Positions 1,224 to 22,120 of a stretch of DNA of 22,406 bases are shown one piece after another. The first letter of the stretch is position 1; each line of letters begins with the position of its first letter. The stretch lies in IMG/VR virus record IMGVR_UViG_2537562020_000008; one strand, 5' to 3'. The notes under the pieces were generated by a model. It did not search any database. It saw only the letters and a program-made list of their open reading frames with translations, and was not told where the DNA came from. Source of the DNA: a virus (lineage: Duplodnaviria; Heunggongvirae; Uroviricota; Caudoviricetes). Made by a program: the position numbers and the translations under genes.

Positions 1224-1272
1224 TATTTTTGTAGAGCCGGAGGAAACAGACCAGACGGTTTAAATGAGCCGG

Positions 1273-1554: not shown

Positions 1555-1877
1555 ACTTTCAGGTCCCTCTCATGTAACCAGTGGGTTGCACGCAGCCTTG
1601 CGTTTTCCTCACCGGCAAGCAGTGCGCGGATAATCCCGACCGCCTCGCTGTCGTCGTCCTTCCCCGCGGTATGAAGCGTTATCCCCCGGGCCACGCCACG
1701 CTTTATCGTGATGACGCCTTTTTTCTCCAGTGCGCGAAGATGCTCCACCGCTGCATTCACCGAACGGTATCCCAGCATGGTTGCCACCTCCTGATTGGTT
1801 GGCGGGAAGCCACGTTCTTTCTGATAAGAAATCAGCATATCCAGCACCTGCTGCTGGCATTGAGTTAACGTCGTCAT
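1551..1877 (-). CDS. LexA-like N-terminal DNA-binding domain protein (winged HTH), lacking the S24 peptidase domain
   Basis: 108 aa; TQCQQQVLDMLISYQKERGFPPTNQEVATMLGYRSVNAAVEHLRALEKKGVITI closely parallels the LexA N-terminal domain ([52 protein letters not shown]). ATGA-type overlaps with both neighbours. Confidence 0.6.
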   Translation of the reverse strand: MTTLTQCQQQVLDMLISYQKERGFPPTNQEVATMLGYRSVNAAVEHLRALEKKGVITIKRGVARGITLHTAGKDDDSEAVGIIRALLAGEENARLRATHWLHERDLKV

Positions 1878-2527
1878 GCCGCCATCTCCCTGACCAGTTT
1901 TTCCGCCTGCTGGCGAACCTGCGCCAGAAACGCCTCACCACATGCCTCAAGTTCATCGCGCCCGATGTAGCTGATTGCCGGTCCCTTCCAGGTCTTGTCA
2001 AAAACAGCAATAGCACCAGCGAAAAAAGCTCCTGTCGGTACCTGCTTCTCGTCTTTCGGGATAAACCAGACAGGCAGTTCAAAACCAATACGCCCGCGAA
2101 TAAAAGCAATATGATCTGCATCTTCCGGCCACCACACTTCGCTGGTGGCAGCTTTGATCAGGAAAACATAGCGCCCGCCCTTATCACGCATGGCACTGGC
2201 ATGTTTCATGATGTAACGCATGCCGGTGATGTATTGCCCCTCATGCTGACTGGCGCGGCTGTATGGGGGATTACCAAAGGCAGCACCTTTAAGCTCCGCA
2301 AGACGTTCTGACCAGTCATGCGCCAGCGCGTTGTCTTCCGCCGTGTAATACGCGGCACATTTGGCGTTATCACCGTCAGTGAACAGATCCAGAACAAACG
2401 GGCCAAACAGGGTGTTAATTCCCCAGAAAATGTTGTCCGGCGTGCGCCACTGATCGCCCACTTCCTTCAGTTCATGGGCTGGTTTGTTCCGCAGTTCCAC
2501 CAGCGCCTGGCAATATTTATTACTCAT
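1874..2527 (-). CDS. Phage-type DNA N-6-adenine methyltransferase (Dam family)
   Basis: Contains the NPPY catalytic motif (AAFGNPPYSR) in a context typical of phage Dam-like methyltransferases. Start taken at the ATG at 2527, which shares one nucleotide with the upstream gene stop (TAATG); a longer ORF to 2560 exists. Confidence 0.8.
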   Translation of the reverse strand: MSNKYCQALVELRNKPAHELKEVGDQWRTPDNIFWGINTLFGPFVLDLFTDGDNAKCAAYYTAEDNALAHDWSERLAELKGAAFGNPPYSRASQHEGQYITGMRYIMKHASAMRDKGGRYVFLIKAATSEVWWPEDADHIAFIRGRIGFELPVWFIPKDEKQVPTGAFFAGAIAVFDKTWKGPAISYIGRDELEACGEAFLAQVRQQAEKLVREMAA

Positions 2528-3021
2528 TAAGCCCCCACGTAATTCCCTGACAGATACCACTCTTCACCCGATGCAGCGCGCTTGCTGCTTTTCCGTAAGC
2601 ACCGCTCACGACGCGTCAGAAAATTGTTTCGTTCTGGCTGGGAGTGGCTTTCACGGAATGCCGCCATCCACACGGTTGCAGCACGACGGTATAAGCCCCT
2701 GGACTCCAGTTCTTCCGCCTGGCGGGTCAGGCACAAAATCACACGGGGATCGTTAGTGCCGACATAGAAATTGCGCACAGGTCTGGTTTCACGAACTGGT
2801 TGTGGTTCCGGTTCCTGCGCTCTCTCAGTCAGGCGCGGGAAATGTCTGCGTGTATCTCCTTCACAACGGTGAGCCACACGCCCACTCTGACGTAACTTGC
2901 TTGCTGACTGCAGAACGCGCTGCCGTGAGTAACCGGCAAAAGCATCCGCAATATCTCCGGAAGTACAGCCCGGATGGGCTTCAATGAATTTCTGAACGTC
3001 ATTCAAAAGACTCATGCTCAC
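2527..3021 (-). CDS. Prophage regulatory protein: N-terminal winged-helix-like region and C-terminal PerC-like motif (family uncertain)
   Basis: 164 aa; C-terminal AEELESRGLYRRAATVWMAAF recalls the PerC/Pch signature from memory. GTGA overlap with the upstream replication gene. Confidence 0.45.
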   Translation of the reverse strand: MSMSLLNDVQKFIEAHPGCTSGDIADAFAGYSRQRVLQSASKLRQSGRVAHRCEGDTRRHFPRLTERAQEPEPQPVRETRPVRNFYVGTNDPRVILCLTRQAEELESRGLYRRAATVWMAAFRESHSQPERNNFLTRRERCLRKSSKRAASGEEWYLSGNYVGA

Positions 3022-3959: not shown

Positions 3960-3968
3960 GACCGACCT

Positions 3969-4307
3969 CTATTTCCCTGAATTTACGACGAAACTGTTCG
4001 AGCGGACTGAAGCACTCATGCTCATAGCCTTCGCGGAGGTAGATAACCCGTTGTGTTTCCGGTTCCCAACGAATGACTCTGACGGGCACTCCGTAGTGAT
4101 CTTTGAACCAGCGGTTAACTTGTCGCAAAGGACTGTCTCCTTCTGCCGGTTGAAATCACCCACAGCCCACTCTGCAAAGCTGTGGGTTACAATTTCCCTG
4201 TCACCTGGTACATTTACTGCATAGCAATACTCCACCTTCGCTTTTCCACCCGGTACAGGAAGCGCAATCAGTTGCGAGCGACGGTAGTGTGTTGTTAAAC
4301 TGTTCAT
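3969..4307 (-). CDS. Hypothetical prophage protein (112 aa)
   Basis: ATGA overlap with the upstream CII-like gene supports translation. An alternative frame with a good RBS and TTG start near 4127 also exists, so the gene model is uncertain. Confidence 0.4.
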
Positions 4308-4855
4308 GCGTTAGTTTCTCCACAGTCACGACACGCCACGGCGCCCGGAGCTGCACACTCGCGGGCGTCATTACTTTCTGAAATGCAAAAGATTTTGTAG
4401 ACCAGTGCTGCATGCTCCTGCAGCTTCGAAATTGAGAGATATAGCTCGTCGTTAATTGCAGTTTTCTCATGCGGTTCCACTACACCGTCTTCGATTGCTG
4501 AACGAATCTGTTTTGAATAACTGCCGATCTGTTCAATGACCTCCAGCAGGCGTTGGTTGATATCGGCGTTGTCCACATCCTCGACATCAGGAAGAGACAC
4601 AAAGACGCCATTTGCAGACTGCGCCACAGCGTCAGCAATGAAGTGAGTTCCACCAGCACGTTGCAAAATCATTGCCCATCCCAGCGGGAAAATCTGATCG
4701 CCATCGGCACGAAGGCGGTTAAATAATGCGTTCTCTGTTACATCCAGCCAGTCAGCAGCTTCAGCGTACCCCCCCGGCAACGCTGCGATAGTTTTTCTGA
4801 CAGCTTTCACGTACCACTCAGGCTGTTTTTCTACTTTCCAGTGATGCTTACCCAC
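4304..4855 (-). CDS. Phage regulatory protein, CII-like (CP76 family) - tentative
   Basis: 183 aa immediately downstream of cro in the rightward operon; overall pattern ([35 protein letters not shown]...) resembles CP76-type CII regulators as I recall them. Confidence 0.5.
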
Positions 4856-5108
4856 GGTTCACCTCCTGTTCCTGTGGTTTAAACCCATTCTGGTTTTGGC
4901 TAGATTGAAAACGTGCCGGATAAAGAATCTGCATTTCGCTGACTTCACCCTTAAAAAAATTGGCTAAACGTTCTGCAAGCTCGATAGATGGAATCTGCTC
5001 CAGCCTCTCAATACGACTCAACGTCGCTGGATTGACTTGAACACCCGCAGCAACATGCTGCAAAGTGAAACCATGCGCCTTACGCACATTTCGTAATGGT
5101 GATTGCAT
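4848..5108 (-). CDS. cro: Cro-like HTH (XRE-family) repressor
   Basis: 86 aa; HTH motif GFTLQHVAAGVQVNPATLSRIERLEQIPSIELAERLANFF; divergent from the cI-like gene across an operator-rich 97-bp spacer. Confidence 0.8.
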   Translation of the reverse strand: MQSPLRNVRKAHGFTLQHVAAGVQVNPATLSRIERLEQIPSIELAERLANFFKGEVSEMQILYPARFQSSQNQNGFKPQEQEVNRG

Positions 5109-5205
5109 ACGCCCTCCAAATATTGCGCGTTATGCATGTTATTTCACGCAATTATTTTGCGCAAGTTGATTTGCTTATCACGCAATAAAGAAATGTAATA
5201 AACGC
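5109..5205. promoter_or_regulatory. Immunity-region operator/promoter region (OR-like) between cro and cI
   Basis: Seen directly: ttgcgcgttatgcat (5123..5137), cacgcaattattttgcg (5144..5160) and ttgcttatcacgcaa (5171..5185), sharing TTGC/GCAA half-sites. Confidence 0.7.
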
Positions 5206-5898
5206 ATGAACATAGGAAACCGAGTCAGACAACTTCGCCAAGCGAAGAACATGAAAATCGCCGATCTCGCTGAAGCGATAGGAGTAGATGCGGCGAACAT
5301 CTCGCGCTTAGAAACGGGTAAGCAAAAACAATTTACCGAACAAACACTGAGTAATATTGCCAAGAGCTTAGGTGTTGATATTGCTGATCTCTTTACCTCT
5401 GCCCACAAAAGTAATACTGTATATAAAAACAGTAATAATGAGGATGTTGCGCAGGTGAAGGATGTGTTCCGTATTGAAATGCTGGATATCAGTGCCAGTG
5501 CGGGAAATGGCCTTATCCAGGGCGGTGATGTCATTGATGTGATTCATGCCATCGAATACAGAACTGATAATGCTGTATCAATGTTCGGCGGACGACCAGC
5601 CAATCACATCAAAGTTATCAACGTTCGTGGGGACAGTATGTGTCCAACCATTGAGCCCGGAGATCTCATCTTCGTTGATGTCAGCATCAATCAGTTTGAT
5701 GGTGATGGTATATATGTCTTTGGTTTTGATGACAAAATATACGTTAAAAGACTTCAAATGATTCCTGACAAACTGCTGGTGATTTCTGATAACCAGATTT
5801 ACCGTGAATGGGGAATTACTAGCGAAAACGAACACCGATTCATGGTCTTTGGAAAGGTCTTAATCAGTCAGTCGCAAACCCTTAAGAGACATAATTAA
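5206..5898 (+). CDS. cI: cI-like prophage repressor (N-terminal XRE HTH + C-terminal LexA-like S24 peptidase domain)
   Basis: 230 aa; HTH (MKIADLAEAIGVDAANISRLETGK) and C-terminal S24-type region (VRGDSMCPTIEPGDLIFVD ... IYVKRL). Confidence 0.9.
   Translation: MNIGNRVRQLRQAKNMKIADLAEAIGVDAANISRLETGKQKQFTEQTLSNIAKSLGVDIADLFTSAHKSNTVYKNSNNEDVAQVKDVFRIEMLDISASAGNGLIQGGDVIDVIHAIEYRTDNAVSMFGGRPANHIKVINVRGDSMCPTIEPGDLIFVDVSINQFDGDGIYVFGFDDKIYVKRLQMIPDKLLVISDNQIYREWGITSENEHRFMVFGKVLISQSQTLKRHN
5415..5434. promoter_or_regulatory. Near-consensus SOS (LexA) box embedded in the cI coding sequence
   Basis: Seen directly: TACTGTATATAAAAACAGTA versus consensus TACTGTATATATATACAGTA; CTGT-N8-ACAG core intact. 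Confidence 0.5.
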
Positions 5899-5917
5899 CC
5901 TCAATATCCCATCCATC

Positions 5918-5942
5918 GGCCACCGAAAGGTGGCTTTTTATT
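5918..5942 (+). terminator. Rho-independent terminator downstream of cI
   Basis: GGCCACC-gaaa-GGTGGC hairpin followed by TTTTTATT, 20 nt after the cI stop. Confidence 0.75.
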
Positions 5943-5952
5943 ACCTATAAAT

Positions 5953-5989
5953 TTGCATATCTCGCAAATATCACTTGCATGTCTCGCAA
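5953..5989. promoter_or_regulatory. OL-like operator pair (two 15-bp TTGC-N7-GCAA sites, 22 bp apart)
   Basis: Seen directly: ttgcatatctcgcaa (5953..5967) and ttgcatgtctcgcaa (5975..5989), same half-sites as the cro/cI intergenic sites. Confidence 0.55.
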
Positions 5990-6175
5990 TTTAATTTTAT
6001 CTTTTGTTCCAGACCAACTACAGGATTACAACAAAATCTGGTTGCAACACGGTGCATGTGTCGTAAGCAGTCAGTAAATGTCAAAAACGAACAGGCAGGA
6101 CGCCCACGAAGTAGCCGCCTGGGGCATATGAAGTCCAGGATGATTCGTTGAGTCATGTTGTGCCACTAGGCACTC

Positions 6176-6472
6176 ATGTTAAAGCAGGTGTATGAAATGA
6201 AAGTCCAGATTTTAAACAATAACTGTGAAGTCGTTTGGTCATACGACATAGCCGCCCCTGTAGATCAGAGCGGCGATAGCTGGACCAATGGGAAACATCA
6301 GATTATGGCTGGAGTTGTGTTCTCTTTACGCCGTGCTTTGGAACAGGCTGAAGTATTTCCATCAGACCCTGAATGGAAATGGCCTTTTTCTATTTGTCCA
6401 AATTCGGAGAGCACATTTCAGAAAATTGGTCAGAAAGTCGCACTCGAAGAGCATCAGCCAACTGTTTCCTGA
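6176..6472 (+). CDS. Hypothetical moron protein (possible start at 6196, MKVQILNN...)
   Basis: ORF downstream of the OL-like sites at the position occupied by rexAB/sieB in lambdoid phages. Its 3' end overlaps the convergent ORF by ~80 bp, so one of the two may be mis-called. Confidence 0.35.
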   Translation: MLKQVYEMKVQILNNNCEVVWSYDIAAPVDQSGDSWTNGKHQIMAGVVFSLRRALEQAEVFPSDPEWKWPFSICPNSESTFQKIGQKVALEEHQPTVS

Positions 6473-6635
6473 TTTTTTCAGGTAACTCGTCGGCATCGCA
6501 GAAACAACAACGCTCGATCATGTTGAAAGCCGATTCGTAGAACTGTTTCTGCTGAGTGTCGCTGAGACAGGAAAAGAGCGACGTTACGATGATTTTATTA
6601 ATTGCATTATCAAGTTCTTTTTCATCAAAAGTCAT
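6390..6635 (-). CDS. Hypothetical small Cys-containing protein (81 aa)
   Basis: Good RBS (aaaaggaaaatcaaATG); contains CCFC; no family recognised. Confidence 0.45.
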   Translation of the reverse strand: MTFDEKELDNAINKIIVTSLFSCLSDTQQKQFYESAFNMIERCCFCDADELPEKIRKQLADALRVRLSDQFSEMCSPNLDK

Positions 6636-7072
6636 TTGATTTTCCTTTTATGTATACGGGCTTAAAAGGATACCACCGAGCCTGAAGTGGTGAAAAGACA
6701 GGCACATAACAGCTAAGTATTTTCAACCAAAGAGAATCCTTAGCGTTGTGGTGAATGCGGCTCAGCGCACGCGGGTTAAGGTTGAGGCTGACAGTCGACC
6801 TTCTGTGGATACCCACCCGTCTGGTGTGCAACCTTCGCCAGGCACCGGGAGGCACCCGGCACCACAACTTTATGCTGTGTGTAGTCCTGGCGGTACCAGT
6901 TTGTACCCTTGCTTCCGGCTGGTACCGTCCTTTTTACAAAACAGAGAAGAGCATCACCGGACGACGGGCTCATAACCCAATCCATCCGGGCGGCTGCCAC
7001 CGCAGGTGTTCTTCTCTGTTTTGTGGAGAAACTAATCGGCCTTGCAGGGTCGATATGATGAGGAGCAGCAAA

Positions 7073-7447
7073 ATGGCTAGCGAACGCAGTACTGATGTAC
7101 AGGCATTTATCGGGGAGCTGGACGGCGGCGTATTTGAAACCAAAATCGGCGCAGTTCTCAGTGAAGTCGCTTCCGGTGTGATGAACAGGAGGGACAGCTG
7201 ATAGAAACAGAAGCCACTGGAGCACCTCAAAAACACCATCATACACTAAATCAGTAAGTTGGCAGCATCACCCAAACTCTCATATGTTCGCCCGACTAAC
7301 CGCGGGAAAATTTCCGAAGAAGACACCACCGAAACGCCGATGTATGTCAATCGCGGTGGTCGCCTGACTATTCTGCAGGAAGACCAGGGACAATTACTGA
7401 CTCTTGCCGGTGAACCTGACGGAAAACTCCGCGCAGCAGGTCATTAA
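7073..7447 (+). pseudogene. Prophage gene split by a ~90-bp IS1-end remnant (5' part 7073..7182, 3' part 7273..7447)
   Basis: RBS gaggagcagcaaaATG at 7073; 5' fragment MASERSTDVQAFIGELDGGVFETKIGAVLSEVASGV stops inside the IS1-derived segment; 3' fragment KLSYVRPTNRGKISEED...GKLRAAGH resumes in the same frame after it. Confidence 0.4.
7183..7272 (-). mobile_element. IS1 left-end remnant (IRL plus ~65 bp; the rest of IS1 absent)
   Basis: Reverse complement reads GGTGATGCTGCCAACTTACTGATTTAGTGTATGATGGTGTTTTTGAGGTGCTCCAGTGGCTTCTGTTTCTATCAGCTGTCCCTCCTGTTCA, matching the IS1 terminus and start of insA as I recall it; similarity ends near 7183. Confidence 0.8.
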
Positions 7448-7512
7448 TATCGTTCTTAATTAACTGATTATTTATCTCATCACTGAATATCTTTATATAG
7501 TGAGGACTTATT

Positions 7513-8337
7513 ATGTCTCAGAACTTAGACGCAACCGCAATTAATCAAATCCATGCCCTTATTTCTGCTCAGGGTGTTAATGAAATTATCAGTAAGATTG
7601 GTGCCGATGCTGTGGCATTGCCTGAGAATTTCCGCATTCATGATCTGGAAAAATTTAATTTAAATCGCTTCCGTTTCCGTGGTGCGCTTTCCACTGCCAG
7701 CATCGATGACTTTACCCGTTATTCTAAAGATCTTGCAGATGAAGGCACCCGCTGCTTTATCGATGCTGATAATATGCGAGCCGTCAGTGTGCTTAACCTG
7801 GGTACTATTGATGAACCAGGTCACGCAGATAACACCGCCACTCTCAAACTGAAAAAGACAGCACCGTTCTCTGCCCTGTTGTCTGTTAACGGCGAGCGTA
7901 ACTCCCAGAAGTCACTGGCAGAATGGATTGAAGACTGGGCCGACTACCTTGTGGGCTTTGATGCTAATGGTGACGCCATTCAGGCAACAAAAGCGGCTGC
8001 GGCGGTCCGTAAAATCACGATTGAAGCAAACCAGACCGCTGATTTTGAAGACAATGACTTCAGCGGCAAACGCTCTCTGATGGAGTCTGTCGAAGCGAAG
8101 ACCAAAGACATTATGCCAGTGGCATTTGAATTTAAATGCATTCCGTTTGAAGGTCTGAAAGAACGTCCGTTTAAATTACGCCTCAGCATTATCACTGGCG
8201 ATCGTCCGGTACTGGTTCTGCGCATTATTCAGCTGGAGGCGGTGCAGGAAGAAATGGCTAACGAATTTCGTGATCTGCTTGTTGAGAAATTCAAGGACAG
8301 CAAAGTAGAAACCTTTATTGGTACTTTCACCGCCTGA
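7513..8337 (+). CDS. yfdQ: YfdQ-like prophage protein (DUF2303 family)
   Basis: 274 aa, the length of the CPS-53 prophage protein YfdQ, and followed by YfdR/S/T-like genes in the same order. Confidence 0.7.
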
Positions 8338-8465
8338 TTTCATTACTGCAAATGCCCCTGCGGGGGCATTTATGGAAACGTAATTAACTCAATAATCGCC
8401 TGATGGCGAGGGTTTTCTTTAACCAAAATTCAGCGCGGTGCAGCGCATATAAAGTGGAGAACAAA

Positions 8466-9002
8466 ATGTCATTTATTAAAACTTTTTCCGGGAAGCATTT
8501 TTATTATGACAAGATAAATAAAGACGACATCGTTATTAACGATATCGCGTTTTCCCTTTCAAATATCTGTCGCTTTGCCGGTCATCTTTCGCACTTCTAC
8601 AGCGTCGCCCAACATGCGGTTCTTTGCAGCCAGCTGGTGCCGCAGGAATTTGCTTTTGAAGCGTTAATGCATGATGCAACAGAAGCGTATTGCCAGGACA
8701 TTCCCGCACCACTGAAACGCCTTCTTCCTGACTATAAACGGATGGAAGAAAAAATAGACGCCGTAATCCGTGAGAAATACGGGTTACCTCCTGTTATGAG
8801 CACGCCAGTGAAATATGCCGATCTCATCATGCTGGCAACCGAACGCCGCGATCTCGGGCTTGATGATGGCTCTTTCTGGCCTGTACTGGAAGGTATCCCG
8901 GCAACAGAGATGTTCAACGTGATTCCACTGGCACCGGGCCATGCCTACGGGATGTTTATGGAACGCTTTAACGAGTTATCGGAGTTACGCAAATGCGCAT
9001 GA
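8466..9002 (+). CDS. yfdR: YfdR-like HD-domain protein (5'-deoxynucleotidase family)
   Basis: 178 aa from the ATG at 8466 (RBS GGAGAA); HD-like motif region (FAGHLSHFYSVAQHA ... ALMHDATEAY). The ORF track extends upstream to 8403. Confidence 0.7.
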   Translation: MSFIKTFSGKHFYYDKINKDDIVINDIAFSLSNICRFAGHLSHFYSVAQHAVLCSQLVPQEFAFEALMHDATEAYCQDIPAPLKRLLPDYKRMEEKIDAVIREKYGLPPVMSTPVKYADLIMLATERRDLGLDDGSFWPVLEGIPATEMFNVIPLAPGHAYGMFMERFNELSELRKCA

Positions 9003-9355
9003 ATGTTTTCGAAATGGAAGGGTTTCTTCGTGGGAGATGTGTACCGCGAGATCTGAAAGTAAATGAAACAGATGCTGAATACCTGGTGCGTAAATTCGAT
9101 GCGCTTGAAGCTAAATGTGCAGCACAGGAAAACAAAGTAATACCAGTGTCAACTGAACTGCCACCAGCAAATGAAAGTGTTTTGTTATTCGATGCTAACG
9201 GAGAAGGCTGGCTAATTGGCTGGCGTTCTCTCTGGTACACCTGGGGACAAAAAGAAACCGGAGAATGGCAGTGGACATTTCAGGTCGGGGACCTTGAAAA
9301 CGTCAATATCACTCACTGGGCAGTAATGCCAAAAGCACCGGAGGCTGGAGCATAA
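8993..9355 (+). CDS. yfdS: YfdS-like prophage protein
   Basis: 120 aa; overlaps the yfdR stop; Trp-rich C-terminus (WLIGWRSLWYTWGQKETGEWQW). Confidence 0.65.
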   Translation: MRMNVFEMEGFLRGRCVPRDLKVNETDAEYLVRKFDALEAKCAAQENKVIPVSTELPPANESVLLFDANGEGWLIGWRSLWYTWGQKETGEWQWTFQVGDLENVNITHWAVMPKAPEAGA

Positions 9356-9660
9356 TGACCACTTTTACCGACAAAGAACTGATTAAAGAAATTAAAGAGC
9401 GTATCAGCAGCCTTGACGTGCGAGACGATATTGAGCGCCGTGCTTATGAAATCGCACTCCTATCTCTGGAAGTAGAACCAGATGAACGCGAAGCTTATGA
9501 ATTATTCATGGAAAAGCGTTTCGGTGACTTAGTAGATCGTCGGAGAGCAAAAAACGGCGATAACGAATACATGGAATGGGATATGACTCTCGGTTGGATC
9601 GTCTGGCAGCAACGAGCTGGTATCCATTTTTCAACAATGTCACAGCAAGAGGTGAAATAA
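9355..9660 (+). CDS. yfdT: YfdT-like prophage protein
   Basis: 101 aa; start coupled to the yfdS stop. Confidence 0.65.
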   Translation: MTTFTDKELIKEIKERISSLDVRDDIERRAYEIALLSLEVEPDEREAYELFMEKRFGDLVDRRRAKNGDNEYMEWDMTLGWIVWQQRAGIHFSTMSQQEVK

Positions 9661-10010
9661 TGGAGCCATACAGCCTCACACTCGATGAGGCCTGTCATTT
9701 TCTCAAGATATCCAGACCGACTGCCATTAACTGGATACGCACAGGGCGTCTTCAGGCAACACGCAAAGATCCCACTAAGAATAAATCTCCTTACCTCACA
9801 ACACGACAAGCCTGCATTGCGGCTCTTCAGTCTCCGCTGCATACTGTCCAGGTGAGCGCGGGTGATGGCATAACAGAGGAAAGAAAATGTCACTCTTCCG
9901 CAGAGGTGAAATATGGTACGCCAGTTTCACATTGCCGAACGGTAAAAGATTTAAACAGTCTCTTGGAACAAAGGACAAAAGGCAGGCGACAGAACTCCAT
10001 GACAAGCTAA
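9660..10010 (+). CDS. xis: Excisionase (P22 Xis-like HTH)
   Basis: [40 protein letters not shown]... matches the P22-type Xis pattern; start shares a nucleotide with the yfdT stop (TAATG); 3' end overlaps the int start. Confidence 0.75.
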
Positions 10011-11050
10011 AGGCTGAAGCATGGCGGGTCAGCAAACTTGGTGAAATACCTGATATAACGTTCGAGGAAGCGTGTGTCAGGTGGCTTGAAGAGAAAGCAC
10101 ATAAAAAATCACTGGACGATGACAAAAGCCGGATCGGATTCTGGCTTCAACATTTCGCAGGAATGCAACTAAGAGACATTACTGAATCAAAAATTTATTC
10201 AGCAATGCAGAAAATGACGAACCGGCGTCATGAGGAAAACTGGAAACTCAGGGCAGAAGCATGCAGAAAAAAAGGGAAACCTGTTCCAGAATACACGCCA
10301 AAACCAGCGTCCGTTGCAACGAAGGCTACGCATCTTTCATTTATAAAGGCCCTACTAAGAGCCGCAGAGCGTGAATGGAAAATGCTGGATAAGGCACCAA
10401 TTATTAAAGTGCCTCAACCAAAGAATAAACGGATCCGCTGGCTGGAGCCCCATGAAGCACAAAGGCTGATTGATGAATGTCCGGAGCCATTAAAGTCTGT
10501 TGTTGAATTTGCACTGGCAACAGGCTTAAGACGCTCGAACATCATCAACCTTGAATGGCAACAAATAGATATGCAGCGCCGGGTGGCATGGATAAACCCG
10601 GAAGAGAGTAAATCAAACCGCGCAATCGGCGTTGCGCTGAATGATACTGCATGTCGCGTTTTGAAAAAACAAATCGGGAATCATCACCGTTGGGTATTTG
10701 TGTACAAGGAAAGCTGTACCAAACCAGACGGAACGAAAGCGCCAACAGTAAGGAAGATGCGGTATGACGCAAACACAGCCTGGAAAGCAGCGCTGAGACG
10801 GGCTGGTATTGATGATTTCAGATTTCACGACTTGAGACACACCTGGGCAAGTTGGCTGGTTCAAGCCGGAGTCCCGTTGTCAGTGTTACAGGAAATGGGA
10901 GGCTGGGAGTCTATCGAAATGGTTCGTCGATATGCTCACCTTGCACCTAATCACCTTACCGAACACGCACGGCAAATAGACTCGATCCTGAACCCATCGG
11001 TCCCAAATTCGTCCCAGTCAAAAAATAAGGAAGGTACTAATGATGTGTAA
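9887..11050 (+). CDS. int: Tyrosine integrase, P22-type
   Basis: 387 aa; [47 protein letters not shown]... and C-terminal [41 protein letters not shown] (catalytic R..HxxR..Y); abuts a tRNA-Thr 3' fragment. Confidence 0.9.
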
Positions 11051-11064
11051 CTTATTGATTTAAA

Positions 11065-11113
11065 TGGTGCCGATAATAGGAGTCGAACCTACGACCTTCG
11101 CATTACGAATGCG
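11065..11113 (-). other. att core: 3' 49 nt of a tRNA-Thr (thrW-type, anticodon CGT) gene; the 5' half of the tRNA is not present here
   Basis: Reverse complement CGCATTCGTAATGCGAAGGTCGTAGGTTCGACTCCTATTATCGGCACCA equals the anticodon-loop-to-CCA segment of tRNA-Thr(CGT) as recalled; the sequence 5' of it is not tRNA-like. Confidence 0.8.
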
Positions 11114-11201
11114 TAAATTGATCTTGTAAAATCAATACCTATCGAATTTAAATGGATTTTTTGCCACAATATTGCCACAGTTCGTTAGGAATCAGACAGA
11201 A

Positions 11202-12275
11202 ATGGCGACTATACGCAAACGTGGTAACTACCAATGGGAAGCTCAAATCCGTAAACGTGGTTTTCCCTCTCAAACCAAAACCTTTAACACCAAAGTAGAA
11301 GCAGAAGCTTGGGCCAAAATGATCGAGTCAGAAATGGCGAGAGGAGTTTGGCTTAGCCGCAGCGAAGCGGAATCTACGACATTGTATGAAGCCCTAACGC
11401 GATATGAAAAAGAGATTGTTCCCGACAAAAAAGGGGCAGTGCAAGACCGATCATTGGTGCGGATACTAAAAGGCACTCAGCTGGCGAAAAACTATATGGC
11501 CAGCATCAGGAGTGCCGATGTCGCCAAGCTGAGAGATGAATGGTTGAAAATCTATGCTCCTGCAACCGTTTTAAGGCGTTTGGCCTTACTTTCTCATGTA
11601 TTCAATGTTTCGCGGAAAGAATGGGGCATGGAGAGCCTGCTGAACCCCGTAGAGGCCATTCGTAAACCCCAACCCAAGAACTCCAGGACCAGACGCCTAG
11701 AAGCGCTGCCTGTAGTTTCTGAGAAAACCGGTGTTACGTCAGGAAAGCAAATAGCCAACGAGATCGAACATATCATCGCCGCAACACATTCATTAGTATT
11801 GCCAGCAATCATTCTTCTGGCGTTAGAGACAGCCATGCGCCGTAGCGAAATCGCAGAGCTTCGATGGCGCTTTATCGATCTTGATCGGCGAGTTGCACAT
11901 CTGCCGGATACTAAGAATGGTAATGCCCGCGATGTCCCTTTATCAACGAAAGCCATTACGATACTGTCCAGTCTCAAGGAACATTCTAAGCCAGCTGCTG
12001 ATAAGGTTTTTGATATGCGTGCAGACGCGATTACCCGAGCTTTTGACCGAGCTGTAAAACGAGCCAGAGAACGATACGAGAAAACAAACTCATTATGTGA
12101 TGAATCTTTCCTTAAAGATTTAAGATTTCATGACCTTCGACATGAAGCAACTTCTCGACTTGCTGAAATTTTCCCTATGCATGAACTAACCAAAATTACA
12201 GGACATAAAGATCCAAGAATGCTAATGCGGTATTATCATCCAAAAGCTGAAGATTTGGCGTTAAAGTTGAAATAA
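11202..12275 (+). CDS. Second tyrosine recombinase/integrase (island integrase; a longer ORF begins at 11172)
   Basis: RBS AGGAA before the ATG at 11202; C-terminal LRFHDLRHEATSRL ... LMRYYH catalytic signature. Confidence 0.8.
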   Translation: MATIRKRGNYQWEAQIRKRGFPSQTKTFNTKVEAEAWAKMIESEMARGVWLSRSEAESTTLYEALTRYEKEIVPDKKGAVQDRSLVRILKGTQLAKNYMASIRSADVAKLRDEWLKIYAPATVLRRLALLSHVFNVSRKEWGMESLLNPVEAIRKPQPKNSRTRRLEALPVVSEKTGVTSGKQIANEIEHIIAATHSLVLPAIILLALETAMRRSEIAELRWRFIDLDRRVAHLPDTKNGNARDVPLSTKAITILSSLKEHSKPAADKVFDMRADAITRAFDRAVKRARERYEKTNSLCDESFLKDLRFHDLRHEATSRLAEIFPMHELTKITGHKDPRMLMRYYHPKAEDLALKLK

Positions 12276-13411: not shown

Positions 13412-13624
13412 CTAGTGAGCTATTTTATAGTCCCTTAATGCATTTTTAAGTAACTCCGTTTGCTCATCAGCATCATCATAATTATAAATTCCCGTAGCAG
13501 AATAATACTCTTCGATGCATAGAATATTTATCAATGGTTCACAAATCTCTTTAATAAAATCCTTGTTGTTATCGGCAAAAATAATTTTTATTCCTTCCAA
13601 AACAAAGCTATTATAATCAGCCAT
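13412..13624 (-). CDS. Hypothetical small acidic protein (70 aa)
   Basis: Strong RBS (AGGAGGTGGATAATG); acidic composition; no family recognised. Confidence 0.55.
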   Translation of the reverse strand: MADYNSFVLEGIKIIFADNNKDFIKEICEPLINILCIEEYYSATGIYNYDDADEQTELLKNALRDYKIAH

Positions 13625-13693
13625 TATCCACCTCCTTACAGGTGTTTAGTGGAAGCGTCAGTTAACGTTACCGCGCTAACTGACGCGCCTAAA

Positions 13694-16517: not shown

Positions 16518-16584
16518 ACAGGCGGTAGCCGATCAGCCTCGCAGAGCAGGACTCCGTTGAGCAGCTCAGCTGCGAATAAGGGAA

Positions 16585-16635
16585 GGTAAAGTAGAAGCAC
16601 CGTTTACGGTGGGCCTACTTTACATATCCTGCCCT
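16585..16635. other. oriT-like site: 9-bp inverted repeat around an inner palindrome, followed by a MOBP-type nick motif ATCCTGC
   Basis: Seen directly: GTAAAGTAG-aagcaccgtttacggtgggc-CTACTTTAC then acatATCCTGCcc at 16626..16632; lies ~70 bp upstream of mobC. Confidence 0.4.
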
Positions 16636-16787: not shown

Positions 16788-17081
16788 TTATTCTCGCGGC
16801 TTGGGTTTTGGCGGCCTGCCACGTTTCCTTTGACATCTATTTATCTCTTTCGCTATATCGTCATTTTCTGTCTTTGACTCAACAGATTTATCTATCCAGT
16901 CCTTAACATCTTCTCTACGCCAGAGAAGACGTTTATTACCGGGAAGACGGCATCTTGGTGGAAGACATTTTGGATTTCGCGTTGCATCACTGCGGATACT
17001 TTTTACAGTTTTCTTTAATGCAAAAGCCAACTCTTCAACGGTTATAAGTTCTGGCATAACTGATTTCATCGAAGAACCCAT
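16788..17081 (-). CDS. Excisionase/AlpA-like HTH DNA-binding protein with basic AT-hook-like tail
   Basis: 97 aa; LITVEELAFALKKTVKSIRSDATRNPKCLPPRCRLPGNKRLLWRREDVKDWI is an AlpA/Xis-type HTH pattern; C-terminal RKRGRPPKPKPRE. Confidence 0.55.
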   Translation of the reverse strand: MGSSMKSVMPELITVEELAFALKKTVKSIRSDATRNPKCLPPRCRLPGNKRLLWRREDVKDWIDKSVESKTENDDIAKEINRCQRKRGRPPKPKPRE

Positions 17082-17103
17082 CTCTCAGTAGAAATTTGAG
17101 GAT

Positions 17104-17131
17104 TTTAGCGGCTAAAATTTTAGCCGCTAAA
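17104..17131. promoter_or_regulatory. Perfect 28-bp palindrome just upstream of the excisionase-like gene (operator or bidirectional hairpin)
   Basis: Seen directly: TTTAGCGGCTAAAA|TTTTAGCCGCTAAA. Confidence 0.45.
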
Positions 17132-17382
17132 GTTTGCTAACCAACGTTATGAATTGAGAATAATTAAAACTTACTGGCAAAAAGAATAATGTCAACAGGG
17201 TTTTTATTCATCGGATTCTTACTCCATATGAAATTGGTTTTATTGACCGATTTCTGAATGACACTAAGGTTTTAATAATTCCTTTAATCTTTTTGGTTAT
17301 ATAAAAGGTTAAAGATCAGGTTAGAGAGGTGTGGAAAAGCGATATATTCACTTGTTTACTATGACAATTTTAAATTATATCC

Positions 17383-17448
17383 GTACCTCAAATGTCATGA
17401 AAGCGTACCTCATATGTCATAAAGGCGTACCTCATATGTCATATAATA
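17383..17448. repeat. Three tandem copies of a 22-bp unit (GTACCTCATATGTCAT core)
   Basis: Seen directly: gtacctcaaatgtcatgaaagc / gtacctcatatgtcataaaggc / gtacctcatatgtcatataata. Confidence 0.85.
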
Positions 17449-17528
17449 AAAAATAAGCAAACAAGTTATACACAATATTATTAACAGAATCTGTGGATAA
17501 ATACACAGATTATACATGATAAAATAGA

Positions 17529-17734
17529 TTGTTTAGCTAAACTAAATAACAATAAATAAAATGAAACAAAATGTAAATAACAGGGGGGGTGTAGGTGACT
17601 TATAAATTTGGTTAGCTAACCTTTATAAGAAACACTGTTTGTAAATGATTCATTTCTGACAACGGATATATCGAATTTGAGTAAGAAAAACACTTCAACT
17701 AACCTTACTCTCTGATTTGTTTAGCTAAACAAAT
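17529..17734. promoter_or_regulatory. Three palindromes with a shared TTAGCTAA core upstream of the HigA-like gene (putative operators)
   Basis: Seen directly: ttgtttagctaaac (17529..17542), ggttagctaacc (17610..17621), atttgtttagctaaacaaat (17715..17734, perfect 20 bp). Confidence 0.5.
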
Positions 17735-17775
17735 TACTGTAAGGAATCCGATGACGTTAAAAAAAAGGGGGGGAT

Positions 17776-18033
17776 ATGAGGACAATAAATGCTGCACCTT
17801 CAACTGTCGGAGAGATTTTATACGAAGAATTCTTGAAACCATTGGATATGCCTCCCGCAAGACTTGCTGAACTGATGGATACATCATATGAAAAAATTTG
17901 GGAAATAATTAAAAATGAGCGAAATATAACTCTTGAAGAAGCTATTCAACTCTCGATAATTTTCAATACAGATGCATCTTTTTGGGTGAAACTGCAAGAG
18001 CTACATGAGGCATGGTTTAATAAACAAAAGTAA
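17776..18033 (+). CDS. HigA-like HTH (XRE-family antitoxin-type) regulator, no cognate toxin ORF detected
   Basis: 85 aa; VGEILYEEFLKPLDMPPARLAELMDTSYEKIWEIIKNERNITLEEAIQLSIIFNTDASFWVKLQ matches the HigA/VapI pattern; preceded by an A8G7 homopolymer pair. Confidence 0.65.
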   Translation: MRTINAAPSTVGEILYEEFLKPLDMPPARLAELMDTSYEKIWEIIKNERNITLEEAIQLSIIFNTDASFWVKLQELHEAWFNKQK

Positions 18034-18233
18034 GGTTATTCAATTAGATTACTTAGTACTAATACATAATTTGCTTTGAATAATACTCATACATTTCTAA
18101 CGACTTATTAAAGCGATAATATACTCGGACGACTGAGGATTAAAAAATCCGATCCTTGATGATGGGAACCTGCCATGACTAGGTAAGTCATTTTAGCAGT
18201 GGTACAGGCGACATTAAAAGCCGATATAAAGAA

Positions 18234-18266
18234 GCCCGACTGGTAAGATCGGGCCTTTTTATTTTT
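18234..18266 (+). terminator. Rho-independent terminator
   Basis: GCCCGA-ctggtaaga-TCGGGC hairpin followed by CTTTTTATTTTT. Confidence 0.6.
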
Positions 18267-18688
18267 CCACTCTGGCCTGAATAGAACATCCTACATTAGA
18301 CGTTAAGATCTTACATCTAATTATCCGAAACTACTAATGGATGCGTAGTTGCATTTGACCTGACCGCCCATTTGCGGGTTACTCTACCATCGCCAATAAA
18401 GTCCGGCTACTCGAATTCGGAAGTATTAGGCTATAGGTCATAAACCTGAATAACTGCTATGTGCTGAAGCGGATAAAGCTGACATCATTATGCACCAATC
18501 AACTCGGTGTAAGTCAGCTAGTTGGTGATGGAGTGACTTGTCAATAGTTGTAGCCCCTACCAGTGCATCGGAGATTCTTGAGTGTAACCTTAGTTGCATT
18601 AATCAGAAGTAAAGGAAACGTACTATGAAAATCAGTACTCTTAATCAAGAGATCCCCCGTTCTCTCACGGAAAAGGGGGATTGAATTT

Positions 18689-19951
18689 TCAAATTTTCTT
18701 TTTAGCGATAAAAATACAGTAAAAATATAAGGTTTTGATAATGTGATTAATGCTGTGCACCTCGCGAAATAATAGTAATAGCTTCCTCATAAAAGACATG
18801 AAACTAAGTTCGTTGTATTTAGTGCGTTCCATTCCTTCCTTAGCGAAATAGTAGGTTATCATCTGAATTGACTCTTTATATTCATATTTATAATGTGCAA
18901 TGCCATTTCGCAGCTTGTTGTCTAAAGCATTGAGATCAACTATATAAAAGCTATCATCCAATCCGCTTATTTTCGTGCCTAAATCAACGTTTGCATATTC
19001 GTTGAGACTAGAAAAACCTTTAATTAAATCGCCTTTTTTATTTAGTCTTACTGAATCGTCAAAAATATTATGATCTCCGCGTTTTAATAAGTTATTCAAT
19101 CCGGCCACAATTATTAATTGCCGAGAGAATACTTCAGATAAGTCTTTGTAAAAATTGTTACAGTCATCAAATTCGGCAGTTGAAACTCGAGCAGGAATCA
19201 TTGATAAATCTACGTTTTTATCATAATCATAGTAAAGCGCTGGGCGTGAAGGGAGTTCAAAGTCAAGCATTTTGGGATATAGGCTTAAACAATCGAAATG
19301 CAAACTTTTCAGAAACCCACTTCCAATAATATCATCTAAAAATTTATTTAGCTGTTTTGGATGATTTTTCTGAATATAATGAAGAAATTGTGGCATTTTT
19401 TCACTAATTTCAGCATTATGTGCATGTATTGTAAAGGGAAATGACATTGCAGAGGTTGCTGTATAAAGTGCGGAAAGGATATCTTGTATTTTTAGCGAAC
19501 GAGGTTTTTTCAGAGTAGGTAATTCTTTCATTAGGTTACTGAAAGTATTGTAATTTCCTTGTTTGTATTGAGTAATGAGTCGCTGGAGCTTATCGCGATG
19601 TTTATAAATATAATTCATTCCATTTAGATGTGCGTTCAGCATTAAGTATTTTTCATGACCTATTGCACTTGTTATTTTTAAGAATGCTGTTTTTCCTTTT
19701 TCGTATTTTCCAAAGCCTACGGGAAAATCTAAATGCAAATCGATGAATGGATTTGTTGTGCCAAAGTCATTGCTTTCTACAGTTTCCGCACCGTTAAATA
19801 CAGGCTCTCCCTCCCCAAGAGTAAACGATATATTATTCTCACAATTTGGACATGCAAATTGGAACGGTTGTATGTCTCGATTAGACATACCTATTCTTGT
19901 ATCAATGACCGTGTCACATACAAGGCATTTAAATTGCTGTAAAAAATTCAT
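18689..19951 (-). CDS. Uncharacterised 420-aa protein: N-terminal CxxC...CxxC zinc ribbon and C-terminal R-N-x3-H (HEPN-type) motif
   Basis: C9/C12 and C34/C37 (CLVC ... CPNC); RNGIAH at aa 348..353; strongly AT-rich codon usage; no family recognised. Confidence 0.6.
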   Translation of the reverse strand: MNFLQQFKCLVCDTVIDTRIGMSNRDIQPFQFACPNCENNISFTLGEGEPVFNGAETVESNDFGTTNPFIDLHLDFPVGFGKYEKGKTAFLKITSAIGHEKYLMLNAHLNGMNYIYKHRDKLQRLITQYKQGNYNTFSNLMKELPTLKKPRSLKIQDILSALYTATSAMSFPFTIHAHNAEISEKMPQFLHYIQKNHPKQLNKFLDDIIGSGFLKSLHFDCLSLYPKMLDFELPSRPALYYDYDKNVDLSMIPARVSTAEFDDCNNFYKDLSEVFSRQLIIVAGLNNLLKRGDHNIFDDSVRLNKKGDLIKGFSSLNEYANVDLGTKISGLDDSFYIVDLNALDNKLRNGIAHYKYEYKESIQMITYYFAKEGMERTKYNELSFMSFMRKLLLLFREVHSINHIIKTLYFYCIFIAKKKI

Positions 19952-20198
19952 AAATATTTTATTAATCCTATAAATTATAAGTTAAGTATTAGTCTTTTAT
20001 CTACAAACCAAAGCCACTTTACTACTTTACCTAACTGCACTTTAAACAATCATAAGTTCTTTTTTTTTAAAAAGGTAGTCCAAAGATACCAATTTATTCA
20101 ATATCAACGAGAATTCGAGACTCCTATGTGAGTAAAAAACTATGAGCTTCATGCCATGCTTTCAATAAATGTCTTCAGTTACCCATAAATTTACTGGA

Positions 20199-20726
20199 TT
20201 AACAATTTGTAGTCTTTCCGACCAAATTACCGCGCGCAGTGTGACCCCATACTTTAGAGGTCACCTTATCTCTTTCCACTAGTTGTTTACGGTGCATCAA
20301 ATCGGCAAGCAGTATTGAAACAAAGAACATGAATTTTGTTTTGGGAGTATTAGGAACATCTTTGGGTCCAAGCCAAGGTAGCTGCTCCAGTTGATTTTGT
20401 ATTTTGGGTGTTGCGAAGCTAACACCATTCCAACTATGCCCAAAAGCATTTCTAATGCTACGCAGTGTGTTTAGTTCTTTGTATTCGTGTTCCATTATCA
20501 GTCCTAACGCATATGCTAAGCCTGTTCTAGCAGCAAAAGATGATAAAGGCGCTGTTGCACCATTCAGTAGACCTTTAGCTACTTTGTCATTTAACAGGTG
20601 AGCCTGGATGATCTCGGATAACCACTCATCGAAAATGGATGCTGCTATTAGAACAGAGCCACGATCTGATTCTTTATTTAGTTCGGACAAAAATTGACCG
20701 AGTTCAATTTGGGTTTTATCACTCAC
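20199..20726 (-). CDS. Uncharacterised 175-aa alpha-helical protein with R-N-x3-H (HEPN-type) motif; by-eye resemblance to MtlR/DUF4145-like domains
   Basis: RNAFGH at aa 92..97 in ...LAYALGLIMEHEYKELNTLRSIRNAFGHSW; by-eye resemblance to the MtlR helical domain. Confidence 0.55.
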   Translation of the reverse strand: MSDKTQIELGQFLSELNKESDRGSVLIAASIFDEWLSEIIQAHLLNDKVAKGLLNGATAPLSSFAARTGLAYALGLIMEHEYKELNTLRSIRNAFGHSWNGVSFATPKIQNQLEQLPWLGPKDVPNTPKTKFMFFVSILLADLMHRKQLVERDKVTSKVWGHTARGNLVGKTTNC

Positions 20727-21214
20727 AGACTCTGGAACTCCTTTCTCAAAAATTCAACATGAGGACGCTTCGGTCGCACATCAATCTTAACCATTAGATT
20801 ATGAAATTGTGTTAGGTCTGGGTCAAACTATGAACAAAAACAGAAAAAATTATTGTGACGTTATTTAGGGGGACCTACAATGACACATTTTAAACAATTA
20901 CTTTAATATCAATAAATTGGATCGTATTACTGTGTTCCTATTATTGGTTTAGCTCAGCTTGTCGCTCACAGCGGACCTTCAGCTCGATAGCAAGTCCGCT
21001 CCGTTGGAGTGCCAGATGCGCTCTAAATTTGATGGCTAGTATTGAAGAGATACTTGGGCATCATGGTTATGGTGTAAATACCGTCTGTGATACCCGCAGA
21101 GGTGCTAGGTTTAGGCACTGAGAAGGATACATTGAACATGAATTCAGAGTGATGTAACACAAGTCATAGAAAATTAGTGATTTATATTGAAAAGGGGGTT
21201 ATTTTATTAAAGCA

Positions 21215-21234
21215 AGGCCGCCTTTAGGCAGCCT
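21215..21234 (-). terminator. Putative terminator hairpin for the 225-aa gene
   Basis: On the minus-strand RNA: AGGCUGCC-UAAA-GGCGGCCU (one G-U pair) followed by a U-rich tract; 6 nt after the stop codon. Confidence 0.4.
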
Positions 21235-21240
21235 CTTATT

Positions 21241-21918
21241 TTACATGTAGATATTCATTAAACTGTCAAATAGTCTTTTGGTTAACTCTTTTTCCGCTCG
21301 TGCTTCGATTTGAGCCATACCATTTCGGAAGAGTTTTAATTTACCGCTAAATTCTTGGTCATGAATAGTACATGTCAATCGATCAAGTCTCATTTTTTTG
21401 TGAATAAGCTCATCTTTGAAATATTTTTTAAGATCGCTGGTACTATTAATTTGCATCTTGGCAAGAGCAAATTCAGCAACTTGAATTTGAGATACATCTA
21501 GTTGCACTATATTAAGTGTCAACTCTGTGTTTAAAGAACTGAACCATATGAACGGGTCAATCTCAATCTCTTCTAAGCTGGTACCAAGACCAAGGTTTTT
21601 TACCAGTGCCTGAGCAAATGGTTTAAGTGTTCTCGGTGGATTATCAATAAGTAAAACTGGGGTGTATTGTTCGTCAAAACTGAAAGATGTTACTCTATAT
21701 TCAATGCGTTCAACAGCGGTACTGTTGCCGTATAGATTACTTATTCTATCTTCGCTAATTATCTTTTCGATGAAGCGAGCGTGAAAATGAGATGTTCGTG
21801 ATTTATCAAATATAAACCCTTTCCCTTTCTCTTCAGTAAAAGGATCACGCATGAGTTTTTCAACTGTTTCACTAGTAGTGAAACGATTGTTGAGTTTAAT
21901 CCATTTAAATTTTTTCAT
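21241..21918 (-). CDS. Hypothetical protein (225 aa), unknown function
   Basis: Long ORF with AT-rich codon usage; 4-nt gap to the upstream small ORF suggests an operon; no family recognised. Confidence 0.55.
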   Translation of the reverse strand: MKKFKWIKLNNRFTTSETVEKLMRDPFTEEKGKGFIFDKSRTSHFHARFIEKIISEDRISNLYGNSTAVERIEYRVTSFSFDEQYTPVLLIDNPPRTLKPFAQALVKNLGLGTSLEEIEIDPFIWFSSLNTELTLNIVQLDVSQIQVAEFALAKMQINSTSDLKKYFKDELIHKKMRLDRLTCTIHDQEFSGKLKLFRNGMAQIEARAEKELTKRLFDSLMNIYM

Positions 21919-21922
21919 GCTC

Positions 21923-22120
21923 TTACACCTTTTTACCCGTCACGATATTATAGGCGTCTGCTGCTGACTGTTCAATTAGTAGGCTGATTTTCTTCTTTTC
22001 AACTTCATTTGCTGCACGAATAGTAACATTGTATCCACTACCTTTTTGGTTATTGATTCCTTTAATTTGATAGGAAAAATCAGAGCAATTTTCTGAATCC
22101 TTAAAGAAAGCTTCAACCAA
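21923..22120 (-). CDS. Hypothetical small protein, possibly 5'-truncated by the adjacent IS1
   Basis: Reading frame stays open into the IS1 terminus; the first candidate start is a TTG right at the IS1 boundary. Confidence 0.35.
   Translation of the reverse strand: MVEAFFKDSENCSDFSYQIKGINNQKGSGYNVTIRAANEVEKKKISLLIEQSAADAYNIVTGKKV

Follow-up and report, generated by a model that had tools for sequence, protein, structure and literature searches.

Two adjacent HEPN-type genes in a small defence islet of a Caudoviricetes record: probably two independent single-gene immunity candidates

Does a pair of neighbouring genes, each encoding an R-N-x3-H motif, constitute one defence module, or do two self-sufficient genes simply lie side by side? 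This question is raised by the IMG/VR virus record IMGVR_UViG_2537562020_000008 (Caudoviricetes), a stretch of 22,406 nucleotides that is referred to here as the window, in which two open reading frames (ORFs) on the minus strand encode proteins of 175 and 420 aa. An initial annotation regarded the pair as a candidate for an undescribed abortive-infection or defence module of HEPN type. The two ORFs, the motifs RNAFGH (residues 92–97 of the 175-aa protein) and RNGIAH (residues 348–353 of the 420-aa protein), and the four cysteines of the latter (residues 9, 12, 34, and 37) are all located exactly where that annotation placed them:

20199..20726, minus strand: 175-aa gene, predicted solo HEPN protein (MtlR fold, HepS-like), GTG start with AAGGAG upstream
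18689..19951, minus strand: 420-aa gene, zinc-ribbon/helical/HEPN-like protein, annotated as a hypothetical protein, phrog_13366

The pair is probably best understood as two independent single-gene HEPN-type immunity candidates that happen to be neighbours within a small defence islet.

The distribution of the two families suggests two autonomous single-gene units, which are sometimes co-transferred. The 420-aa family was located at approximately 60 loci and the 175-aa family at 9; both occur together only in the island of the window (L001) and in L053, a metagenomic lambdoid prophage. At 48 genome loci of the 420-aa gene, the 175-aa family is absent by both tblastn and hidden Markov model searches, and the neighbourhood comparison that the initial annotation had suggested revealed no conserved neighbour across these loci. 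Relatives with 86–90% amino-acid identity are likewise uncoupled: a member of the 420-aa family (P0003, 86%) stands by itself in a Rac-like prophage, flanked by the replication and nin genes, and the closest stand-alone relative of the 175-aa protein (P0122, 90%; L065 7001–8594) lies 86 bp upstream of a DUF4238 gene, beside ParDE. Three other members of the 420-aa family (P0005, P0006, and P0007; 73–78%) occur without the 175-aa gene. Furthermore, in one Escherichia coli strain the 175-aa gene has been deleted naturally while the 420-aa gene is still intact, so that the deletion is tolerated. A single two-gene module is therefore not borne out. On the chromosome, the L065 pair is flanked by a HemN-like radical-SAM gene on one side and acetyltransferase/MFS genes on the other; Rst_DUF4238 is a known single-gene defence system.

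Indications of coupling come from the DNA that surrounds and separates the two genes:

18468..20857, minus strand: 2.4-kb cassette with both genes and the upstream, intergenic, and downstream DNA, also present in the unrelated lambdoid prophage L053
20798..20826, minus strand: promoter-like TTGACC-17-CATAAT upstream of the 175-aa gene (10 of 12 matches; weak evidence), inside the conserved cassette
19952..20198, minus strand: AT-rich spacer of 247 bp between the genes, 73% identical to L053
20003..19974, minus strand: promoter-like TAGATA-18-TATAAT in the spacer, before the 420-aa gene
18653..18674, minus strand: terminator-like hairpin just past the stop codon of the 420-aa gene, in a region kept in L053

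Positions 7866–10279 of L053 match positions 20857–18468 of the window with 82.6% nucleotide identity (blastn), distributed as 77% upstream, 89% in the 175-aa gene, 73% in the intergenic DNA, 86% in the 420-aa gene, and 70% downstream; the outer flanks show approximately 45% identity, which is random. Since the cassette lies between random flanks in two elements, the two genes have been transferred together on one occasion or more. Both genes are under purifying selection, with synonymous to non-synonymous codon differences between the window and L053 of 34:18 for the 175-aa gene and 123:33 for the 420-aa gene. This co-movement of 2.4 kb between two unrelated elements, together with the lack of a hairpin terminator in the spacer, weighs against full independence. 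It favours an obligate two-gene HEPN–HEPN module, in which a sensor would serve an effector, a heteromeric HEPN site would be formed, or one protein would restrain the other, as do the shared strand, the 247-bp distance, and the terminator-like hairpin found only after the second gene. Set against the 2 shared loci of approximately 60, the uncoupled close relatives, and the tolerated deletion, such an obligate module is unlikely, and some functional coupling of both genes may exist in this lineage.

Neither repeats nor an Rfam match were detected in the spacer, and the number of promoter-like sites in the region is not above that in shuffled sequence. The 220 bp downstream of the 420-aa gene (18468–18688) retain, at 70% identity with L053, several blocks of 12–25 nt beyond the hairpin. 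A 53-aa ORF at 18438..18599 was rejected as a gene, as it is not conserved as coding sequence relative to L053. The cassette was also considered as part of an extended Rst_3HP system and rejected: the L053 copy is without 3HP, being located between Hachiman plus an AbiJ-like gene on one side and lom/J on the other, and no neighbour is conserved in the 48 loci.

What, then, does the motif shared by the two proteins signify? In composition-preserving shuffles, R-N-x3-H arises in 1.1% of cases for the 175-aa protein and in 3.0% for the 420-aa protein, in line with the approximately 2% per protein estimated initially. Among the 31 other window ORFs with a length of 100 aa or more, one has a chance copy (RNKPAH, in a methyltransferase ORF at 1874..2560), and because this ORF is unrelated, the motif count by itself proves little. 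The argument that two neighbouring motifs are no coincidence is thus weak as a matter of counting, and it is conservation in homologues that is decisive, the motif residues being invariant in both families. The two proteins were rejected as paralogues, without detectable homology between them; hhalign of the two families was limited to 21 columns around the motif, with a probability of 1.7%.

In the case of the 175-aa protein, the motif is located as follows:

20436..20453, minus strand: RNAFGH, residues 92–97, predicted HEPN catalytic motif at the end of helix 79–97, with invariant R, N, and H

Searches of 5.8 billion proteins yielded 15 homologues. R92, N93, and H97 are invariant in the 14 homologues of alignment A4 (lowest identity 29%), as is the sequence AYALG. 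The protein passes the Pfam model MtlR (PF05068) with 27.8 bits against a gathering cut-off of 25.2, and MtlR is also its best match in fold comparison (13.8 for 6kcr and 13.6 for 3brj), followed by YggD (12.3 for 3c8g), HepS (10.9 for 9oik), and the classical HEPN toxins (approximately 8). The likeness to MtlR/DUF4145 domains recognised at the outset is thereby upheld. MtlR has been placed in the DUF4145-like HEPN branch; some members of the MtlR family are predicted to be active RNases, and many are regarded as inactive (Anantharaman et al. 2013, PMC3710099).

HepS is the characterised protein that the 175-aa protein resembles in its motif and its setting. HepS (STM14_3211; PDB 9oij/9oik), a 'HEPN Solo' abortive-infection protein from the Gifsy-1 prophage of Salmonella Typhimurium 14028, forms a tetramer that is inactive at rest, self-sufficient, and non-toxic, without a partner gene; siphovirus tail-tip proteins activate it, whereupon tRNA anticodon loops are cut, and its His is required for defence (PMC13043305). 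The segment AYALG...IRNxFxH of the 175-aa family aligns to AVALG...IRNKYAH of HepS (PDB-aligned fragment), which holds the catalytic R100 and H105. Like the proteins of that study, the 175-aa protein stands alone, does not exceed 250 aa, and has a HEPN fold and an RX4-6H motif (PMC13043305). Frequent location in prophages and the absence of a conserved partner gene are shared as well: a Pantoea relative is located at a prophage end, a Methyloferula relative adjoins an insertion sequence (IS), and no common partner was seen at the loci surveyed. HepS itself gives a sub-threshold match to DUF4145, and 393 PSI-BLAST homologues of it have been listed (PMC13043305). The 175-aa gene would accordingly be a remote and new addition to the solo HEPN proteins of HepS/MtlR type, resembling HepS within the MtlR/DUF4145-like branch. 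Meanwhile, a 182-aa relative (ESDKG...AYRLGLI...LRNEFAH) is encoded by Klebsiella phage Kp4856-1 (L081, OK490410.1) at 3929–4477, between a siphovirus tape-measure gene, the stop codon of which is overlapped, and distal tail genes; this position is worth noting because HepS is triggered by tail-tip proteins.

The match to HepS is remote, and this counts against the assignment: the A4 profile matches the HepS chain weakly (E 0.076), and hhalign gives a weak alignment (E 0.0011, probability 20%) over 93 columns, in which the catalytic motifs are in register. The regulator of E. coli, MtlR, moreover has R-x4-H at the aligned position, so that retention of the motif does not prove catalysis. These points lend weight to a reading in which the 175-aa protein is a non-catalytic MtlR/MltR-type regulator of a neighbour, for example of the 420-aa gene, or a binder of RNA or HPr, instead of an RNase. 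In both structure and sequence it matches MtlR itself best, many members of that family are deemed inactive (PMC3710099), and RefSeq names the protein 'MltR family transcriptional regulator'. However, the NCBIfam MltR subfamily model (PRK11001) gives 30.6 bits, far below its cut-off of 149, and no mannitol-operon context exists, the neighbours being Rst_3HP, the 420-aa gene, prophage genes, and DUF4238; the family occupies prophage and defence slots instead. Unlike in Vibrio MtlR, where the motif is lost, R-N-x3-H with the polar N typical of catalytic HEPN domains is invariant in the 175-aa family. Some MtlR-family members are predicted to be active RNases (PMC3710099), and in HepS, which shares the fold class, defence depends on the His (PMC13043305). 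The regulator reading hence appears rather improbable, and the RefSeq name is probably an over-annotation.

The 420-aa protein is composed of three parts, which the predicted structure (pLDDT 91.4, pTM 0.91) and the family alignment delimit as follows:

19814..19951, minus strand: Cys4 zinc ribbon, residues 1–46, two beta-hairpins with CxxC knuckles in the model (C9, C12, C34, C37)
19217..19696, minus strand: middle helical domain, residues 86–245, helices 89–240 in the model, the most variable part of the family
18707..19180, minus strand: C-terminal HEPN-like domain, residues 258–415, with helix 258–291, an insert, helix 345–353, beta insert 356–383, and helix 384–415
19121..19150, minus strand: YKDLSEVFSR, residues 268–277 (E-x3-R), in helix 258–291, with K269, D270, and E273 invariant and R277 near-invariant (at least 90%)
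18893..18910, minus strand: RNGIAH, residues 348–353, predicted catalytic motif at the end of helix 345–353

The family is widespread in the gamma-, beta-, and alphaproteobacteria, two word-indexed searches giving 359 and 556 clusters at 90% identity and an exhaustive search (E <= 0.001) giving 460 representatives at 50% identity, mostly 400–450 aa long. C9, C12, C34, C37, K269, D270, E273, R348, N349, and H353 are invariant in 81 homologues (alignment A3, lowest identity 33%), and the motif reads RN[GAS][ILV]AH in every full-length member from the 48 loci. In 48 distant relatives with 15–20% identity (alignment A5), the second cysteine pair and the R and H are still invariant, and the first pair, the N, and one E, which presumably corresponds to E273, are nearly so. 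Invariant positions are densest in the zinc ribbon (11 of its 46), where they comprise R19, G21, S23-N24-R25, and Q28-P29 in addition to the four cysteines; the Pfam zinc-ribbon matches are sub-threshold, and further strands of the model reach residue 81. Mean entropy is 1.92 bits in the middle domain, a candidate for the part that senses or confers specificity, against 1.1 in the HEPN helices. Conservation is greatest in the zinc ribbon and the three proposed HEPN helices, and the beta insert of the C-terminal domain consists of three strands.

The published definition of HEPN domains (PMC3710099) includes an Rx4-6H that closes helix 3, with a polar residue following the R, an Ex3[KR] in helix 2, and inserts that separate the core helices. 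The C-terminal domain of the 420-aa protein corresponds to this description, with an Rx4-6H that ends a helix, a polar N after the R, and E273-x3-R277 in the preceding long helix; based on the model, helix 258–291 is proposed to be HEPN helix 2 and helix 345–353 to be helix 3. When the domain alone is compared with Pfam, all matches are sub-threshold and all are to HEPN families, with pEK499_p136 at E 0.01 (16 bits, cut-off 26.6), and distant members give one match each to Abi_2 and pEK499_p136 (E approximately 0.004, also sub-threshold). Several results point the other way. With the full-length protein, no Pfam HEPN family appears at E <= 1 and no HEPN model reaches its cut-off; Foldseek of the full model against the PDB gives no match at E <= 0.001; and the hhalign comparison with the 175-aa family, described above, finds next to nothing beyond the motif. 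Similarly, a PDB sequence search with the family profiles A1 and A5 produced helical-repeat noise only. It is conceivable on these grounds that R-N-x3-H, E-x3-R, and the zinc ribbon serve nucleic-acid binding or regulation in a new fold that is not a HEPN enzyme, but the joint conservation of these elements in the arrangement of the definition makes this very improbable, and the C-terminal domain belongs to the HEPN superfamily with good likelihood.

The full-length 420-aa protein belongs to no family of Pfam, PADLOC, or NCBIfam, phrog_13366 (function unassigned) being its sole match. A search of 50,697 phage-genome records returned no match to it, although phrog_13366 exists. The PADLOC matches of distant members, to PDC-S12 and E1-E2/E2, probably reflect a SEC-C motif at the C-terminus of four members and not the core, as equal member counts suggest. 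In Yersinia kristensenii (L062 2985–6360), a copy of the gene with 77% identity is followed by an AAA ATPase and Peptidase_S8 pair, which may be another defence-type pair.

The closest known architecture, judged from its published description, is that of RAZR (PD-T7-4; ring-activated zinc-finger RNase), a single-gene protein with an N-terminal Cys4 ribbon and a C-terminal divergent HEPN domain, which is non-toxic alone and activated by assembly around phage ring proteins (PMC13017515). Both proteins are encoded by a single gene without partner or antitoxin and share the order of ribbon and HEPN domain, the latter being recognisable mainly from structure and the conserved R and H. There are, however, significant differences. 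RAZR is approximately 25 kDa with a 14-residue linker, whereas the 420-aa protein is twice that size and has a helical domain of approximately 160 aa between ribbon and HEPN domain; RAZR carries DUF4145 with catalytic R146 and H154, whereas the 420-aa protein carries R-N-x3-H and has no DUF4145 match; and the zinc finger of RAZR is its most variable region, which sets specificity, whereas the zinc ribbon of the 420-aa protein is its most conserved region. The protein has no PADLOC family at E <= 1, and PD-T7-4 is absent among the matches of distant members too; the 2023 PADLOC library presumably includes a PD-T7-4 model. By most of these comparisons, the 420-aa protein falls outside RAZR.

A HEPN RNase and a sensor are also combined in one polypeptide in DARNA/PD-T7-3 (bioRxiv 10.64898/2026.02.22.705581), HEC-08 (bioRxiv 10.1101/2024.01.29.577857), ApeA, AbiJ, and AbiD/F, which are abortive-infection proteins that are dormant until triggered. 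DARNA and HEC-08 differ in having the HEPN domain at the N-terminus and a Pds5-like or zinc-finger C-terminus, and neither window protein matches any of the PADLOC/Pfam models of these systems.

Members of both families are found in accessory loci of prophages or in defence islands. Besides Rst_3HP in the window and Hachiman with the AbiJ-like gene in L053, members of the 420-aa family are located directly downstream of Gabija GajA/GajB in Cellvibrio, where ParE/Phd are close by; in a Vibrio island that also carries GmrSD, a methylase, and serine recombinases; between integrase and tail genes in a Providencia prophage; and in a small integrative element at mutS. Among 134 nearest neighbours at the 48 loci (PADLOC, Pfam), GajB was found three times, LmuB twice, integrases five times, and resolvases four times, together with reverse transcriptases. 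These counts are a survey and not an enrichment, and a role in defence, as well as any RNase activity or toxicity, is predicted for both proteins.

The same mobile settings would also suit factors that stabilise the island or prophage by toxin-type addiction, or that exclude rival elements, in place of anti-phage immunity as such. Both families travel on prophages, integrative elements, a plasmid (L013), and possibly in integron-like contexts, and toxin–antitoxin genes are frequent neighbours, such as HigA in the window and ParDE near relatives. Against this, no antitoxin gene is conserved next to either family at the loci surveyed, no MNT partner is present among the neighbour proteins of the 420-aa family, and the characterised solo HEPN analogues are non-toxic until phage proteins trigger them. 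An RNA antitoxin or regulatory RNA within the cassette was rejected, since neither tandem repeats nor Rfam families occur in 18300–21300, and membership of the HEPN-MNT or type III toxin–antitoxin systems was rejected on the same grounds and for want of a conserved neighbour. Addiction or competition between elements accordingly has little chance of being the principal role.

For the two independent immunity candidates, the most likely mode of action, by analogy with HepS, RAZR, and DARNA, is that each is a dormant RNase, switched on by a phage-derived signal and leading to abortive infection. The 175-aa protein would form a HepS-like oligomer that is inactive at rest and is activated when it directly recognises a protein that the infecting phage produces; it would then cut tRNA or other RNA via R92, N93, and H97, whereby translation would stop and the infection would be aborted. 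The 420-aa protein would act as a three-part sensor–effector of Cys4 zinc ribbon, variable helical domain, and HEPN-like RNase (E273, R348, N349, and H353). As in RAZR, it may be dormant alone until its N-terminal part engages an infection signal, which would bring two HEPN domains into a composite active site, leading to RNA cleavage and growth arrest. In a more speculative and doubtful version, the family is a new, widespread single-protein immune sensor with a logic unlike that of RAZR: the invariant ribbon (R19, S23-N24-R25, and Q28-P29) would sense a conserved non-protein signal (a nucleic-acid structure or a host factor, for example), the hypervariable middle domain would tune specificity, and the HEPN RNase would be unleashed. 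A rarer possibility is that the HepS-like gene and the 420-aa gene form a co-transferred, cooperating HEPN defence pair in this lineage.

The islet itself is best explained as belonging to an integrative element, now degenerate, that occupies the thrW/proA locus of E. coli, where it adjoins an Rst_3HP system inactivated by IS1. Of 5426 complete E. coli genomes, 12 contain the 2.6-kb region with at least 99% identity, in every case on the chromosome. The genes of strain E8 are arranged in the order proA, tRNA-Thr, Hp1 (a PD-(D/E)XK nuclease), Hp2, Hp3, the 175-aa gene, the 420-aa gene, and an orphan HigA, followed by the conjugation remnants TraJ, TrbJ, and TrbL, then VbhA, an integrase, and a CPS-53-like prophage. 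Two parts of Rst_3HP, both outside the cassette, lie in the window:

21241..21918, minus strand: Rst_3HP Hp3 (PADLOC 3.4e-80)
21923..22120, minus strand: Rst_3HP Hp2 remnant, last 65 codons (PADLOC 1.4e-26, profile positions 290–353 of 359)

IS1 cuts Hp2 from approximately 22129 in the window, whereas Hp1-Hp2-Hp3 are intact beside tRNA-Thr in E8; the IS1 junction in Hp2 occurs in strain E1739 only, that is, in one of the 5426 genomes. The integrase, the TrbL/TrbJ/TraJ remnants, and IS1 were thus recovered as the island edges that the initial annotation had named. Its statement on AT-rich genes is also sound, as the GC fraction is 0.32–0.39 across 17000–22000 and 0.45–0.57 across the prophage on the left (1–11500).

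Some further features are situated in the conjugation remnant and at its borders. The orphan HigA antitoxin gene occupies 17776–18033 on the plus strand (TIGR02607, 65.9 bits), and neither the window nor the RefSeq annotation shows a HigB-like ORF upstream of it. PtaRNA1 (Rfam, 48.6 bits), an antisense RNA that is a type I antitoxin, adjoins the trbL remnant at 13618–13690 on the plus strand, and a traJ-II RNA (Rfam, 93 bits) is located upstream of traJ at 16535–16634 on the minus strand; regulatory RNAs therefore persist in the remnant. At approximately 11067–11178, the equivalent locus of E8 has a 112-nt 'tRNA-Ser' in RefSeq, between the prophage integrase and the island integrase. Because ARAGORN finds no tRNA in the whole window, this is probably a tRNA fragment or an attachment-site remnant.

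How new are the two genes? Single-protein HEPN abortive-infection systems of both architectures, HepS (PMC13043305) and RAZR/PD-T7-4 (PMC13017515), were published in 2026, and the 175-aa protein is probably a remote HepS relative, so that 'undescribed' no longer applies to the architectures; what stands is that the 420-aa family appears to be unnamed, the gene being a widespread variant of the zinc-ribbon–HEPN single-protein kind. The accessions WP_001395316 and WP_021570025 were in no paper found, two 2026 NAR papers held nothing relevant to either protein, and neither the accessions nor signature peptides of the proteins were found in the portions of the DefensePredictor supplements that were covered.

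Solo HEPN proteins that sense infection and kill, such as HepS, RAZR, and DARNA, form a class that is only just emerging. To this class the 420-aa family would add at least 460 clusters at 50% identity, confidently modelled and missing from Pfam, NCBIfam, and the 2023 PADLOC library; it recurs beside Gabija, Hachiman, 3HP, and type IV restriction genes and would be an inexpensive and clearly delimited candidate to validate. The conserved ribbon and the variable middle domain of the family provide a contrast to RAZR for how HEPN effectors switch on. Furthermore, there are probable phage-defence RNases among the proteins automatically annotated as 'MltR family transcriptional regulator', an error in annotation that deserves correction, and the locus carries a warning for genome annotation, in that adjacency inside a defence islet is not equivalent to an operon-level system.

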